From contig JBBTRQ010000019.1 of assembly GCA_038065075.1 (NCBI GenBank), forward strand, positions 9,456 to 73,455: a stretch of DNA of 64,000 bases, written 5' to 3'. The stretch is from Patescibacteria group bacterium (lineage in GTDB: Bacteria; Patescibacteriota; Patescibacteriia; UBA9934; GWF2-40-263). Both the position numbers and the translations under genes were made by a program. Each line of letters begins with the position of its first letter. Position 1 is the first letter of the stretch. Of this stretch, positions 15,166-42,421 are shown piece after piece. The notes under the pieces are model-generated. The model did not search any database. It worked only from the letters and a program-made list of their open reading frames with translations, and was not told the DNA's origin.

Positions 15166-15324
15166 AGATGGAGATGACGGGCAGAACTATAACAAAACTC
15201 TCTGAAATTGAAAACCCAACGTTAGCAGATGTCGTTAGCAAGGTGCACAAAATGATTGACAATCTAGCCGTTTTCTGGCCAAGCTGGGTAGAGAACCCCT
15301 ACTTGTAGTGAGCCACGTCGAACT

Positions 15325-15732
15325 ATGCAAAGACTCCTCCCACATCCCCTTCCAGCCACTCCCGAAGCCCTTATGACAAAAGCGGGCTATGTTCGGCATT
15401 GTGTGGAAGCAGGACGGGCGTGTTATCATCGACGTCTGAACGATCCGGCATTTCCTCGATTCCATGCCTATGTTTCCCTCAACACCCACGGCATGCTCAT
15501 CGACCTGCACTTCGACGCGTTAGACAGCATCAACCACAAAAGCAACCACGATCAGCCGTGGGCGTATGAAGGCGGGCGTGTGGACGAAGAGATGCGACGA
15601 ATGATCCAAGCGATGTGTGGGATCATCTGTCTCAAAAAAATCTATCACCCACCAGAACCTGATTCCCCTGTGGTGATAGCCGACCCGAAGAAAAAACGAA
15701 GCCTATTCGATCTCCTATTCAAGACAATGTAA
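15325..15732 (+). CDS. Hypothetical small protein (paralog A)
   Basis: Shares '[FY]HAY(V)...(I/V)(D/N)LH(F/V)D' with the next ORF. Preceded by the conserved leader TTGTAGTGAGCCACGTCGAACT-ATG. Confidence 0.45.
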   Translation: MQRLLPHPLPATPEALMTKAGYVRHCVEAGRACYHRRLNDPAFPRFHAYVSLNTHGMLIDLHFDALDSINHKSNHDQPWAYEGGRVDEEMRRMIQAMCGIICLKKIYHPPEPDSPVVIADPKKKRSLFDLLFKTM

Positions 15733-15736
15733 GACT

Positions 15737-16111
15737 ATGAAAAAGTTCTTTGCCGGTCCGCTTTCCGACAATGCCCGTAACCTCCTGCGACGGCTTGGAT
15801 ACGGCGAGCAACGGACGCGAGCGGGGCAGATCAGTTATGTGAAGCGTGTCATGGGTGAACGGTTCCCGCGCTACCACGCCTATGTCGAGGACATGAACGG
15901 CGGGATCCAAGTGAACCTGCACGTCGACCAAAAAGAAGCGAGCTACGAAGGGACGAGCGCCCACGCGGGAGAGTATGAAGGTCCCGTCGTGGAGCGGGAG
16001 ATGTCACGAGTCGCCGGGTTCGTTGCCACACTCAAGGGTGGAGGCGTCACGACCGAACCTGCATCGCCGCCCGAAAAGAAAAAAGGCTTCTGGGGAACCC
16101 TGTTTGGCTAG
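15737..16111 (+). CDS. Hypothetical small protein (paralog B)
   Basis: Tandem paralog of 15325-15732 (RYHAYVEDMNGGIQVNLHVD). Confidence 0.45.
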   Translation: MKKFFAGPLSDNARNLLRRLGYGEQRTRAGQISYVKRVMGERFPRYHAYVEDMNGGIQVNLHVDQKEASYEGTSAHAGEYEGPVVEREMSRVAGFVATLKGGGVTTEPASPPEKKKGFWGTLFG

Positions 16112-16192
16112 AAATGAAAATCCCGCCGTCGCTCAGAGCTATGGCGGGCAAGGCGCTCGGCTGCGTACCGGGCGCGTTTTTTGTTTCCTTCT

Positions 16193-16720
16193 CTAGAGGG
16201 AGGGTTGTGGGCGATGAGGAAGCGGGTCGATGACCCGGCGGGATCCGTAGATCCCTGCGCGATAGTCAACGATCCCCTGGCGTTCGTTGTCGTGCACCGC
16301 GCGCGAGGGCGTGGGACCTGTGAACACGGACTCGGGGATGACCTGAATTCGCCTGTCGAGGATGCACTCAAGCTCGCCCTGGAGCATGCTCATGGCCCGC
16401 TCCATATGCCACCAGTCGGTGACGAGGTGGATGCGCGCGACCTCTGTGTGAGCGCGCATACGCATACTCTGCCCGACTGCCTGGGCGTCGGCAAGCGTGC
16501 ATGAGCGCGCATCGTACGCAGCAACAGCCGTGTGCACACCCGCGCTCCACGCGCGAATCTGGAACGCACGGACTTCCTCGCCGCCGCAGGCATCGCCCGC
16601 GATGAAGAGCAGGGCATCGAGCGTGAGCGCGATCTGGATCGCGTGGTTGATTCGACGGGTGGGGGTCTGATCCCCCTCGTCATGGGGTCCGCAGAACATC
16701 GCAACAGCAGTAATTGGCAC
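16193..16720 (-). CDS. DUF218 (YdcF/SanA-like) protein
   Basis: 'LVTDWWHMERA' resembles the DUF218 H-M-x-R-A motif. The gene is GC-rich. Confidence 0.4.
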   Translation of the reverse strand: MPITAVAMFCGPHDEGDQTPTRRINHAIQIALTLDALLFIAGDACGGEEVRAFQIRAWSAGVHTAVAAYDARSCTLADAQAVGQSMRMRAHTEVARIHLVTDWWHMERAMSMLQGELECILDRRIQVIPESVFTGPTPSRAVHDNERQGIVDYRAGIYGSRRVIDPLPHRPQPSL

Positions 16721-16746
16721 GAATCCTCCAGCGGGGTCAGGTTCTA

Positions 16747-39868: not shown

Positions 39869-39871
39869 ACG

Positions 39872-40261
39872 CTACGGCAGGGCGCATCCTGACTCTTGCG
39901 CCAGAGTTTCCAGACTCTGTTCACCGCTTGCCCGCGATCCATCCGAGAACTCCCAGGTTGGATAGCCCTGGATCCCCGCATCTTGGCACGTCTGATTCAT
40001 GGTGCGCGCGGCCGTCGAACACTCAATGTAATTCACGTTGTCGAACGCGCTCCCAAAAAGATCTTTTTGATTCTCACAATGCGGACACCACCACGCTCCG
40101 TACATCGTCACCCCGGCGGTGGTCAGGCACCCAGCGAACTCATCGTACGGTGATGGGGCACTCTGGCCGACAGAGCTATTGGCGGCAAAGACAATCAAAC
40201 CCACAACCACCAGCACCGCGGCTCCATACAAATAATAAGAGGATTGTTTCGACTTAGACAT
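39872..40261 (-). CDS. Thioredoxin-fold protein (VKOR partner)
   Basis: N-terminal TM anchor and a WCPHC redox motif. Confidence 0.6.
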   Translation of the reverse strand: MSKSKQSSYYLYGAAVLVVVGLIVFAANSSVGQSAPSPYDEFAGCLTTAGVTMYGAWWCPHCENQKDLFGSAFDNVNYIECSTAARTMNQTCQDAGIQGYPTWEFSDGSRASGEQSLETLAQESGCALP

Positions 40262-40338
40262 ATGCGCCTAGTATACTTGATAAAAATCGATTTTTCGAGT
40301 AGCCTCGATCCGTTACCTGTAGTGAGCAACGTCGAACT

Positions 40339-41445
40339 ATGAAGCTTGACTGGTCACAACTCCCCCGACCCATCATCGCGCTCTCCCCCATGGCCGACAT
40401 GACGGACAGTGCGTTTTGTCGTGTTGTTCGAGCCATCGAACAACACGACCCTGAGCGATCCCGAGCTTGTCGAGGGGGAGTCGAAGGGTGCAGGCAGGTT
40501 GTTCTCTTCCGCGAGATGGTCTCCGCTGAGGCAGTCGTGCGCGGCAACGACAAGACACTCAACATGACCGACATCCACCCTGACGAGCGGCCGCTCGTGC
40601 AACAGCTCTTTGGAAGCGACCCGCAGACGATGGCAGAGGCGGCGCGTATCATCCAAGAGCAACACCACCCTGAGGGCTTCGACGTAAACATGGGATGTCC
40701 CGTGTACAAGATCGTACACAACTTCAACGGCGCGGCGCTCATGAAGGAACCAGAGCTCGCGACGAAGATCATCCAAGCGATGAAAGCCTCTACGACCGTT
40801 CCACTCTCGATCAAGATCCGTACCGGCTGGGATGACCCTCGTGAGTGCATCGAGTTTTCAAAAGTCGTGGAAGCGGCAGGCGCCGACCTCATCACCCTGC
40901 ACGGTCGAACAAAGTCCCAAGGTTACTCGGGACAGTCGGATTGGAACCTGATTGGCGAGGTGAAGAAGGGCCTTTCGATTCCCCTCTTGGCCAACGGCGA
41001 TATCCACACACCTCCATTGACTTTGAAAGCGCTGGAAACAACGGGAGCCGACGGCGTCTTGATTGCGCGAGGAGCGCTTGGCAACCCGTGGATTTTTTCT
41101 CAGATCGAGGATCTTCTCGGAGGCCGGGAGCCCAAGGCGGTGACACTTGAGGAACGCGTGCGGGTTGTGAAACAACATCTCGTGTATCACATCGAGCAAT
41201 ACGGGGACCCCTCGACGGGGCTCGGGGCGGGACGCGGCGTGGTCACATTCCGAAAACATCTCTCGTGGTACTTCCGCGGGATCAATGGCGCCAAGCCGTA
41301 TAAGGACCGATTACACACGGCCACGACGAGCAAAGAGATCAACATGATTCTGGGCGAGATGTTACTCGAGGGACTCGTGGACGGACTCTCGACTCGTGAC
41401 GCCCTGCATCCTCAAGCGGCAGAACGCGCCTTCATGAAGAAATAA
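40339..41445 (+). CDS. dus: tRNA-dihydrouridine synthase
   Basis: 'ALSPMADMTDSAFCRVV' FMN-binding TIM-barrel N-terminus and length. Carries a diverged repeat-family-D insertion (HDPERSRACRGGVEG). Preceded by the conserved leader. Confidence 0.75.
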   Translation: MKLDWSQLPRPIIALSPMADMTDSAFCRVVRAIEQHDPERSRACRGGVEGCRQVVLFREMVSAEAVVRGNDKTLNMTDIHPDERPLVQQLFGSDPQTMAEAARIIQEQHHPEGFDVNMGCPVYKIVHNFNGAALMKEPELATKIIQAMKASTTVPLSIKIRTGWDDPRECIEFSKVVEAAGADLITLHGRTKSQGYSGQSDWNLIGEVKKGLSIPLLANGDIHTPPLTLKALETTGADGVLIARGALGNPWIFSQIEDLLGGREPKAVTLEERVRVVKQHLVYHIEQYGDPSTGLGAGRGVVTFRKHLSWYFRGINGAKPYKDRLHTATTSKEINMILGEMLLEGLVDGLSTRDALHPQAAERAFMKK

Positions 41446-41470
41446 TACTTGTAGTGAGCAACGTCGAACT

Positions 41471-42421
41471 ATGACCATCGGCATCCTCATTTTCTCCGAG
41501 CCACGCGACGAAGTGTACACAGGCGTTGACCGTCTTGTTTCAGCTGGACAAGCGGCAGGCCACACCGTCGTCAAACTCTACGAGCCGCACCTCTCTTTCC
41601 TGTGTCATCCCGTCTTCGACTCCGAGGTCGCTCAGACTCGAGGAGAGCGAGCAGAGCGAGCCGAGGGATCTCCTCACGTCGCGACAATCCTTCACGAGGG
41701 CCAACCGCTTCCAAAACTCGATATCATCATCTCGCGACCGAACTTCGTCGAGGAACCGAGCCTGCGCACCTATGCCGTCCAGATGTTGGAGCGGGCTGGC
41801 TACCGAGTTATCAACGGCCGCCCTGGGTACACCTGGGCAAAAAATAAGCTCACGCAACACGTGTTATTTGCACAGCATGACCTCCCCTGTCCGCGTTGGG
41901 GAATCGCCCGTAGACCGGAAGATACCGTCGCGATCGCGAAGACCATCGGATTCCCGGTGATCGTAAAAGTGGCGTTTGGCACGCACGGCAAGGGCGTGTT
42001 CCTGGCCAAGGACGAGGAGTCTCTCTGGCCGATTGTGGACTATCTGGGTATCCGTGATGGGAACCCTATGATCGTTGAAGAGTTTATCGCGGAGGCTCGG
42101 TCGAGTGACCTGCGAGCATTCGTCATTGGCGGTGAGGTCGTCGGGGCGATGCAGAGAACAGCCGCGGTCGGAGACACGCGAGCAAACACCTCCAGCGGCG
42201 GAACAGGATCGCCGATTGAACTCACACAAGCGGAACAAGCTCTGGCGATCCGCGCCGCCAAGGTGTTTGACCTTGAAATCGCTGGCGTGGATCTCATTCG
42301 TTCAAAACAGGGTCCTCTCCTGCTCGAAGTAAATGGAAACCCCGGCTTCCGAGAACTCGAAAAGGTCACGAGCCTCGACATCGCTCACAAGATCATTGAC
42401 TACGCGGTCGGTCAGTCGTAA
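41471..42421 (+). CDS. ATP-grasp enzyme, RimK-like (alpha-L-glutamate ligase family)
   Basis: ATP-grasp motifs (FPVIVKVAFGTHGKGVFL ... LEVNGNPGF). Carries a diverged repeat-family-D insertion (GERAERAEGS). Preceded by the conserved leader. Confidence 0.65.
   Translation: MTIGILIFSEPRDEVYTGVDRLVSAGQAAGHTVVKLYEPHLSFLCHPVFDSEVAQTRGERAERAEGSPHVATILHEGQPLPKLDIIISRPNFVEEPSLRTYAVQMLERAGYRVINGRPGYTWAKNKLTQHVLFAQHDLPCPRWGIARRPEDTVAIAKTIGFPVIVKVAFGTHGKGVFLAKDEESLWPIVDYLGIRDGNPMIVEEFIAEARSSDLRAFVIGGEVVGAMQRTAAVGDTRANTSSGGTGSPIELTQAEQALAIRAAKVFDLEIAGVDLIRSKQGPLLLEVNGNPGFRELEKVTSLDIAHKIIDYAVGQS

Follow-up and report, generated by a model that had tools for sequence, protein, structure and literature searches.

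An identical leader before three unrelated genes of an Uhrbacterium is probably a very small, target-specific insertion

Why should three unrelated genes on one bacterial chromosome begin directly behind the same two dozen nucleotides? The question is raised by a 64,000-nucleotide stretch (hereafter, the window) of a Patescibacteria group bacterium (NCBI GenBank assembly GCA_038065075.1, contig JBBTRQ010000019.1, positions 9,456 to 73,455 of the forward strand), in which an almost invariant sequence ends at the ATG of a small open reading frame (ORF) at 15325, of the tRNA dihydrouridine synthase gene dus at 40339 and of a rimK-like ligase gene at 41471. An initial annotation of the window had offered a shared promoter, a translation-initiation element, a binding site for a common regulator or the end of a repeat family as possible explanations. 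Here, our comparisons with close relatives and with distant genomes lead us to conclude that this 24-mer is probably a very small, asymmetric, target-specific mobile insertion and not a promoter, a ribosome-binding signal or a regulator site.

Three copies of one leader in the window

A motif search of the window located YTGTAGTGAGCMACGTCGAACT at 15303-15324, 40317-40338 and 41449-41470, always on the plus strand and always running directly into an ATG (15325, 40339 and 41471, respectively). No chance match arose in 100 shuffles with up to three mismatches allowed, confirming that one and the same leader precedes three unrelated plus-strand genes. The block common to the three copies is 28 nt, TACYTGTAGTGAGCNACGTCGAACTATG (TAC...ATG; 15300-15327, 40314-40341 and 41446-41473), which is slightly longer than had been annotated, and the flanks beyond it are unrelated between the copies. 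The copies had also been described as exactly the same; they are near-identical and differ at two positions, namely motif position 4 (Y; T, C and T in copies 1 to 3) and motif position 15 (N; C, A and A), of which the initial annotation had given only the second.

The recurring unit measures 24 bp and consists of a 22-bp core, CYTGTAGTGAGCNACGTCGAAC, together with a repeated TA (CTA in four of the copies considered below). Copy 1, CTTGTAGTGAGCCACGTCGAACTA (15302-15325, plus strand), has (C)TA (15299-15301) on its left and TG on its right and contributes, as its final base, the A of the start codon ATG of ORF 15325-15732. Its boundaries can be shifted by up to 3 nt because CTA is repeated. Copy 2, CCTGTAGTGAGCAACGTCGAACTA (40316-40339, plus strand), lies between a TA at 40314-40315 and a TG, and makes up the final 24 nt of the 5' untranslated region of dus. 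Copy 3, CTTGTAGTGAGCAACGTCGAACTA (41448-41471, plus strand), lies between a TA at 41446-41447 and a TG and accounts for nearly all of the dus-rimK spacer; its TA comes immediately after the stop codon TAA of dus (41443-41445). Copies 2 and 3 flank dus as direct repeats separated by 1.1 kb. In the corresponding contig (CAYHTY010000002.1, GCA_964359885.1), the count remains three in approximately 84 kb, as the roughly 20 kb of extra flank beyond the window contain none.

The sites are empty in close relatives

Comparison of the three sites with those of close relatives (79-93% protein identity) revealed the same genes with the same start codons and exactly 24 bp missing at every site. The comparison loci are referred to here by L-numbers. 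At the first site, the 135-aa ORF (15325-15732, plus strand) has no Pfam match and is a paralogue (30% identity) of the adjoining ORF 15737-16111, which has no insert upstream. The site is empty in L034 (protein 93% identical), where ccccTATGcaaagactcc corresponds to accccTA, the 24 bp and TGcaaagactcc in the window; it is likewise empty in L035 (82%) and L036 (75%), and the relatives without the insert use the same ATG. At the second site, upstream of dus (Dus family; 40339-41445, plus strand, between copies 2 and 3), L026 (RimK 79% identical) reads cgagtaacctgcgtccgtTATGaagcttgac, as opposed to cgagtagcctcgatccgtTA, the 24 bp and TGaagcttgac in the window, and L015 and L017 are also empty. 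As dus occupies the same gene position in these insert-free relatives, the gene is not itself mobile. At the third site, upstream of the rimK-like ATP-grasp ligase gene (41471-42421, plus strand), L027 (RimK 81% identical) reads gaaaaaaTAATATGtct, as opposed to gaagaaaTAATA, the 24 bp and TGacc. Relative to L027, the insert took the place of a TAATATG stop-start junction, and both the rimK start codon and the N-terminus MTIGI are conserved in relatives that lack it. TA stands on both sides of the insert at all three sites (CTA at copy 1), and copies 2 and 3 are present unchanged in L014, a second assembly of the same population.

A fourth clean 24-bp comparison of filled and empty sites came from outside the phylum. 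In a metagenome-assembled genome (MAG) of Allosphingosinicella (L004), the site is empty in six relatives (SucB 92-95% identical) whose flanks are nearly identical: the empty junction reads ...ctcggccATAG followed by cagtcacg, and the filled one reads ...ctcggccATAG followed by TTCGACGTCGCTCACTACAGGTAG and cgggcagg. On the motif strand the target there is CTA/TG (the slash marks the junction), and its TATG is not a start codon. Hence, the 24-mer is a discrete insertion that is absent from orthologous sites in close relatives, and the 24 bp are the whole unit, with nothing shared between copies on either side. The initial suggestion of a repeat family therefore stands in so far as the sequence is a dispersed repeat, but not in the form of the end of a longer one. 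The insertions with an empty-site comparison are young, for relatives with 93%, 81%, 79% and 95% protein identity lack them.

The dus-rimK junction was also observed to be a hot spot for short insertions (window 41443-41473, L015 9930-10000, L017 9950-10000, L026 3958-4000 and L027 115-130). One relative has it empty (TAATATG), the window has the 24-mer there and three other relatives each have a different repeat of 40-70 nt; all of these inserts stop directly before the same TATG.

Copies in other phyla and inside genes

An exact-pattern scan of one genome per species yielded 5 sites and a metagenome scan yielded 8 loci; both public scans report exact matches only. After removal of duplicates, 11 additional distinct sites remained, bringing the total to 14, all perfect outside the two variable positions. 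By our calculation, approximately 4 chance matches to the 19-base pattern are expected in the 596-Gb genome collection. However, all 5 genome matches also fit the unspecified flanks (pyrimidine-T upstream and A downstream), which makes a chance origin negligible. The hosts include another Uhrbacterium, two organisms of the Peribacteria class (Peribacteraceae and Peribacteria), the Allosphingosinicella MAG (68% GC) and a Bacteroidales MAG (28% GC), as well as a contig with a TonB/SusC-type receptor and several contigs without a taxon, with two Bacteroidota-type contigs in all. An identical 24-mer is therefore present in at least three phyla, with one or two copies in each of the other host genomes. 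Viral contigs, phages, plasmids and E. coli genomes yielded no copy; BLAST searches (plasmid, phage and E. coli) returned only chance-level matches of 17-20 nt, and the exact-match scans contained no cyanobacterial match.

The positions of these copies relative to genes were diverse. In L004, the 24-mer is reversed and in frame, encoding the last codons of sucA (HSSTSLTTGS) just upstream of sucB. In the Peribacteria locus L003, a reversed 24-mer lies right after the ATG of a minus-strand ORF, which accordingly begins MNSSTSLTTGK, and in L006 a NUDIX gene reads through the 24-mer, which supplies its C-terminus and finishes in the ATGA where the following gene overlaps. L005 and L007 carry intergenic copies with no adjacent ATG. 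Overall, 8-9 of the 14 copies abut a plausible start codon and 5-6 lie away from one, and the genes downstream, in the window and elsewhere, include dus, rimK, gatC-like and rfbB-like genes and genes for membrane proteins. The contexts of the unit are 5' leaders, intergenic spacers, in-frame positions at gene ends and one mid-gene position, and its tolerance is confined to permissive sites; its 24 nt (8 codons) are open in four of the six reading frames. The initial annotation had held that a motif placed without regard to gene starts would be a plain dispersed repeat, and in other genomes the tie to gene starts seen in the window is indeed lost. A programmed bypass or mini-intron was considered for the coding copies and rejected, as there is neither a take-off stop codon nor structure, and these copies are simply read through in frame.

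The mid-gene copy deserves separate description. In L008, a perfect 24-mer lies in frame inside a Y2_Tnp/IS91-type transposase gene (PVVSHVEL), and a degenerate 23-nt copy (two substitutions and one deletion), of a kind for which shuffles predict 0.05 near-matches, lies 670 nt downstream and frameshifts the same gene. The gene (367-1938, minus strand) belongs to the IS91 family (Zn_Tnp_IS91 and Y2_Tnp), and, with the frameshift falling immediately ahead of its conserved C-terminal segment (...AFITD...), it is probably dead. Plasmid homologues of this transposase are about 30% identical and too distant to provide a clean empty site. Since L008 carries two copies, an IS91 element was examined as the possible driver and was ruled out by its target, its end structure and the absence of target duplication in IS91. 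The transposase gene is a victim of the insert, and nothing shows that it drives mobility.

Anatomy of the unit and choice of target

Across the 14 copies only two positions vary, Y at position 4 and N at position 15, the latter being a single fully variable base near the middle of the unit. Adenine mutagenesis of the type used by diversity-generating retroelements was rejected as their source, as the other nine adenines of the unit are invariant. TG follows 10 of the 14 copies. To the left, CTA is found in four copies, xTA in five, xxA in four and no match in one, so that a left-hand TA is present in nine copies and missing from five, while TA or CTA stands on both sides of the insert at each of the four sites compared in filled and empty form. 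The target can best be summarised as YTA/TG, usually a T followed by an ATG start codon, and unit and target overlap by 1-3 nt (A, TA or CTA). Relative to this TATG, the 24-mer has one fixed orientation. The unit has no terminal inverted repeats, as its first 10 nt match the reverse complement of its last 10 nt at about 3 of 10 positions, nor were inverted arms found within it. The copies also tend to cluster, with spacings of 1.1 kb in the window and 0.67 kb in L008.

Of the 235 TATG sites in the window, 33 are at ORF starts, 30 are elsewhere between genes and 172 are inside genes. About half of the non-genic sites are therefore start codons, and finding three of three copies at starts has a p value of approximately 0.14. 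Choice of TATG, combined with selection against most intragenic insertions, would thus suffice to explain both the three of three in the window and the 8-9 of 14 overall.

With regard to strand, seven of the eight 8-kb bins have a negative plus-strand GC skew (-0.02 to -0.08; bin 1-8000, +0.009) and about 85% of the window genes are on the minus strand. Together, these two biases indicate that the plus strand is probably the lagging strand, on which all three copies have their top strand.

Gene starts, promoters and RNA structure

RimK homologues place the window in Candidatus Uhrbacteria, within the Patescibacteria. It is ordinary core chromosome, carrying greA, rpoD, dnaG, lgt, gatCA, ligA, pilus genes, recJ, lepA, dnaX, cysS, mraZ/mraW and uvrCA, and the genome is about 91% coding. 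Taking the first start codon of each ORF as the gene start, which makes the following counts approximate, a Shine-Dalgarno-like tetramer (GGAG, GAGG or AGGA at -20 to -4) precedes 11 of 62 rough ORF starts, and T occupies position -1 of the start codon in 37 of 62. The three genes do lack a Shine-Dalgarno sequence, as had been annotated. However, such absence is the rule in the window and is therefore unremarkable, and the contrast originally drawn with clear AAGGAG sites at other genes is misleading. Several starts in the window were seen to have a TAnnnT hexamer 6-10 nt upstream. These patterns suggest frequent leaderless or Shine-Dalgarno-independent initiation in this Uhrbacterium. Relatives of ORF 15325 have a -10-like hexamer, of poor quality, 5-8 nt before the ATG, and we considered that this gene may be ancestrally leaderless.

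The proposal of a shared promoter did not survive inspection. The sequences upstream of the three copies are unrelated, and no sigma-70 match (-35 and -10 hexamers 16-18 nt apart) was found inside the motif or at copies 1 and 3, the latter being the rimK site. The sole plus-strand promoter match is TCGACT-17-TATACT (40249-40277), which lies upstream of dus and 39 nt upstream of copy 2. As this promoter-like site is outside the insert, and its gtatacttgat stretch is kept in the insert-free L026, the dus-site insert belongs to the transcribed leader and not to the promoter. A T7/T3-like promoter, which the CTCACTA of the reverse complement brought to mind, was also rejected, as it would be antisense in operon contexts and no phage or viral contig carries the motif.

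A role in RNA was equally unsupported. In single-sequence folds, the 28-mer reached -2.4 kcal/mol (z = +0.14), four of five 76-nt windows around sites gave z values of +0.6 to +1.3 and the dus-site window gave -0.83. The only stem-loop available to the unit is a 5-bp GUAGU/ACUAU pairing that is no better than in shuffles, and no Rfam match covered the motif at the gathering threshold or at E <= 10. Complementarity to E. coli rRNA, used in place of that of the host, was -21.0 kcal/mol for 16S and -21.3 kcal/mol for 23S, compared with shuffled means of -22.6 and -23.7 kcal/mol. An origin from a tRNA fragment was rejected by eye, as T-arm and D-arm readings of either strand fail to pair. Likewise, sequence and fold revealed no dyad or inverted symmetry of the kind expected of an operator, and the motif is not retained at orthologous genes, all three window sites being empty in relatives that are 79-93% identical. 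Literature searches with the 24-mer matched only unrelated primers, and those on short insertions in Patescibacteria returned nothing relevant.

Other repeats and features of the window

A second short repeat family of 39 nt, with the hairpin CCCCTCCTT-TTCA-AGGAGGGG, was encountered at 22169-22207, 62571-62609 and 45964-46002. It is in frame in ligA, where it adds about 10 aa that are absent from the LigA of another Uhrbacterium, and in frame in uvrA, and the third copy is intergenic; two of the three copies end ...TTA/TG, the same junction as that of the 24-mer. Inserts of the REP (repetitive extragenic palindrome) type are known in uvrA and DNA ligase genes of other phyla (PMC3733652). Additional families of hairpin-forming short repeats of REP or terminator type, for example GAGATCCCTCGACTC...GGTCGCTCGGGATGACACA and CCCGCCGTCGCT-AAAG-CTATGGCGGG, lie between genes; the hairpin repeats include 18678-18772, 26086-26145, 29563-29601, 44119-44299, 52519-52616, 54913-54992 and 60912-60963.

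Larger features were also recorded. Three WD40 beta-propeller paralogues (30321-31460, 31479-32576 and 35458-36531), with 83-91% nucleotide identity over more than 1 kb (region 30308-36605), flank a gene for a 988-aa AAA ATPase. The Rfam DUF3800-IX RNA motif is found at 63705-63769 on the plus strand (59 bits; gathering score 36.8), and a DUF3800 protein gene lies on the same contig just past the window end (L031 6626-7276). Finally, a perfect 29-nt inverted repeat with a 24-nt spacer (16746-16827) separates a DUF218 gene from the gene of a TrmB-family regulator, and it may be an operator of that regulator or a bidirectional terminator.

Discussion

Taken together, the empty sites, the defined target and the varied genetic contexts make it likely that the three leaders are copies of a very small mobile insertion. 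In this host, T-ATG is the commonest start context, which would explain why copies are found before starts. With about 91% of the genome coding, 24 extra bp would be harmless almost nowhere but at gene borders. After insertion, a copy would become the last 24 nt of a leader or the entire intergenic spacer, and it would be tolerated owing to its lack of structure and to a host that mostly initiates without Shine-Dalgarno sequences. The position at start codons would thus be a by-product and not a function, with a small effect on expression. As for its movement, one may speculate that the unit is mobilised in trans by a sequence-specific enzyme acting on a single-stranded or RNA/cDNA intermediate, such as an HUH nuclease or a reverse transcriptase with target-primed copying, and that the two hypervariable positions arise during copying. 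Such an enzyme fits better than a DDE cut-and-paste transposase, given the lack of inverted repeats or a hairpin, the asymmetry, the 1-3-nt overlap and the clustering at about 1 kb. In a bolder version, the 24-mer, which lacks inverted repeats, a hairpin and coding capacity, would spread actively and horizontally as one of the shortest mobile units known, by a single-stranded DNA or RNA/cDNA route outside every described insertion sequence (IS), MITE (miniature inverted-repeat transposable element) or REP class; this is possible but appears doubtful to us. A sequence-specific enzyme would insert it at TA/TG in one orientation, and positions 4 and 15 would be written at copying, for example through read-through of modified or unpaired template bases.

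Several observations weigh against a mobile insertion. No mobilising gene accompanies the copies: the window ORFs scanned include no transposase, integrase or mobile-element reverse transcriptase, and the only RVT_3 match among them is a 183-aa ORF of RNase H type. No longer parent element with these ends was found, and the phage, plasmid, viral and E. coli collections gave no match. To our knowledge, a 24-bp unit without repeats or a hairpin is shorter and plainer than any element whose transposition mechanism is known. The copy number is very low, three in approximately 84 kb here and one or two per genome elsewhere, and scans for exact matches hide diverged copies and, hence, the true orientation statistics. 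That 22 positions are perfectly conserved across phyla would also be compatible with strong functional constraint. Moreover, 8-9 of the 11 Patescibacteria copies abut a plausible start codon, a bias that hints at function, although target choice and selection can explain it.

Such hints could be accommodated if the 24-mer were a portable, Shine-Dalgarno-free translation leader, that is, an unstructured spacer, stop-free in two frames, allowing ribosomes to load or to re-initiate at the AUG beside it. Its frequent end exactly at a plausible start codon (8-9 of 14), its predicted structure, looser than that of shuffles in five of six sequences (z of +0.1 to +1.3, the dus site at -0.83 being the exception), a host mostly devoid of Shine-Dalgarno sequences and conservation that is perfect save for two positions all agree with this idea. 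However, orthologues at 75-93% identity start at the same ATG without the 24-mer, which must be recent and dispensable, and at rimK it replaced a TAATATG junction that was already ideal for coupling. Furthermore, copies are reversed in coding tails, placed mid-gene or intergenic without an ATG, the TATG after the Allosphingosinicella copy is not a start codon and shuffled motifs pair with E. coli 16S and 23S rRNA at least as well. We therefore consider a translation-initiation element, as first annotated, to be quite unlikely. That the three genes are co-regulated through a common operator or promoter is scarcely credible. The idea draws on the presence of one sequence before three plus-strand genes in a window of mostly minus-strand genes, but the motif has neither dyad symmetry nor a sigma-70 match, the rimK copy is internal to an operon, 3 nt behind the dus stop, the downstream genes form no coherent regulon, and copies also occur within genes. 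Its absence from the orthologous sites largely refutes both this explanation and the regulator site proposed initially; we also know of no transcription-factor site that is so invariant across phyla.

Two further explanations accept the 24-mer as foreign to its sites. It could be the scar of a larger, excised TA-targeting element, or a landing pad (an att or homing site), with N as the joint or crossover centre; the element would then have been bounded by TA-CYTGTAGTGAGC... and ...ACGTCGAAC-TA or inserted within the 24-mer. The TA repeated on both sides in all four empty-site comparisons, the single fully variable base near the middle, the low copy number and an identity across phyla that looks as if dictated by the enzyme of one element all speak for this origin. 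We nevertheless regard it as unlikely, because no occupied version was found and the half-sites TGTAGTGAGC and ACGTCGAACTA never occur apart in the approximately 357 kb examined (window plus loci). Neither are the halves inverted repeats: unlike the 28-bp dif/Xer sites (CATAA...TTATG type), the 28-mer lacks an 11-6-11 dyad, its arms TACYTGTAGTG and GTCGAACTATG having no inverted symmetry. The left-hand TA is missing in 5 of 14 copies, and known DDE excision footprints are only a few bases long. Alternatively, the 24-mer might be an artefact, such as a contaminating oligonucleotide or an assembly error in MAGs, as all instances come from metagenome assemblies, the sequence is perfectly identical in unrelated taxa and isolate-rich collections (E. 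coli genomes, plasmids and phages) contain none. Yet copies 2 and 3 are identical in independent assemblies (the GCA_964359885.1 contig and NODE_560 of European Nucleotide Archive record ERZ1300416), and the Peribacteria site is identical in three records. The sites are also non-random (TA/TG, gene borders, in frame and stop-free when coding), one copy has decayed and no sequencing adapter known to us matches, all of which makes an artefact very unlikely.

Where does such an insertion belong among known short repeats? The closest counterparts are the small dispersed repeats (SDRs) reportedly described by Elhai et al. in 2008 (Genome Res 18:1484), which are said to be 21-27 nt long and whose mobility was inferred from orthologous presence and absence. 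One of these families, SDR5, reportedly prefers a HIP1 target, several families are said to share a predicted hairpin, and their copy number is reportedly much higher; we know of no enzyme that mobilises them. The 24-mer resembles SDRs in size class, in its near-identical dispersed copies, in its filled/empty polymorphism, in its short target and in the lack of a known enzyme. It differs in having no hairpin and few copies per genome, and in being identical across Patescibacteria, Bacteroidota-type contigs and an alphaproteobacterium. The 24-mer falls under the operational definition of an SDR and is best filed with the very small mobile repeats and not with any family of known mechanism. SDRs are placed only within Nostocaceae in PMC5861425, and PMC3116915 also cites the SDR work.

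REP and REPIN sequences, including the GTAG- and CGTC-tagged REPs of Di Nocera et al. 2013 (PMC3733652), are mobilised by RAYT, a Y1 HUH enzyme. Their locations include gene borders and in-frame positions within genes, and they may provide stop codons (PMC3733652). Like REPs (20-40 bp), the 24-mer is found at gene borders or in frame within genes, and it has GTAG at positions 6-9 and CGTC at positions 17-20, both internal and not strictly terminal. Unlike REPs, it lacks the defining palindromic stem-loop, shows a tiny copy number in the sequence covered (three in approximately 84 kb here and one or two per genome elsewhere) where REPs reach tens to hundreds, and crosses phyla where REP families are lineage-specific and mostly 3' of genes. 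No Y1_Tnp gene was found among the window ORFs scanned. In the 24-mer-free relative L026, a gene for a 290-aa Y1_Tnp protein (IS200/RAYT-type; L026 1-34) adjoins the Ham1/RNase J/VKOR/dus block, and no counterpart was seen at that position in the window. Non-autonomous MITEs that duplicate TA (IS630/Tc1-mariner type; the Correia/NEMIS elements of Neisseria) are approximately 100-150 bp long with 20-30-bp terminal inverted repeats, and those of the Correia type insert near gene starts and are co-transcribed with the neighbouring gene. The 24-mer has TA on both sides in the four empty-site comparisons and often sits near gene starts, but it lacks terminal inverted repeats and, in 5 of 14 copies, the left-hand TA.

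Survival as short selfish DNA in frame inside protein genes is also a property of Rickettsia palindromic elements (RPEs) and of intragenic REPs (PMC3733652). The 24-mer shares this property with RPEs, which, in contrast to it, are 100-150 bp long, palindromic and genus-specific. Identical 5' regions before non-homologous genes have reportedly been described by Matus-Garcia et al. in 2012 as 'putative mobile promoters', which are said to be longer, to carry promoter signals and to be confined to a genome or genus. The 24-mer matches them as an identical sequence upstream of unrelated genes, but it has no promoter features and also occurs inside coding sequence. Lastly, IS91-family elements generate no target duplication, insert next to CTTG/GTTC and have oriIS/terIS ends of about 80 nt with palindromes (PMC13181058). 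The ends of the 24-mer are similarly asymmetric and without inverted repeats, and its CTTG beginning in some copies and its GAAC end resemble the IS91 target tetranucleotides; it differs from IS91 in repeating TA, in its TA/TG target and in its 24 bp without palindromes.

If the 24-mer is indeed a mobile insertion, the consequence for dus, rimK and ORF 15325 is probably small, namely a 24-nt unstructured extension of the leader or spacer. The case would be unusually clean, with four exact empty-site comparisons, a defined target and identity across phyla, and the enzyme could be traced by gene co-occurrence. Insertion of a 24-bp unit at defined sites, with a single orientation and in diverse hosts, would be of mechanistic and possibly genome-writing interest. 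The 24-mer would extend the very small mobile repeats beyond cyanobacteria, and it would show that identical leaders before unrelated genes can be insertion debris, calling for caution in motif-based regulon prediction in uncultivated bacteria.

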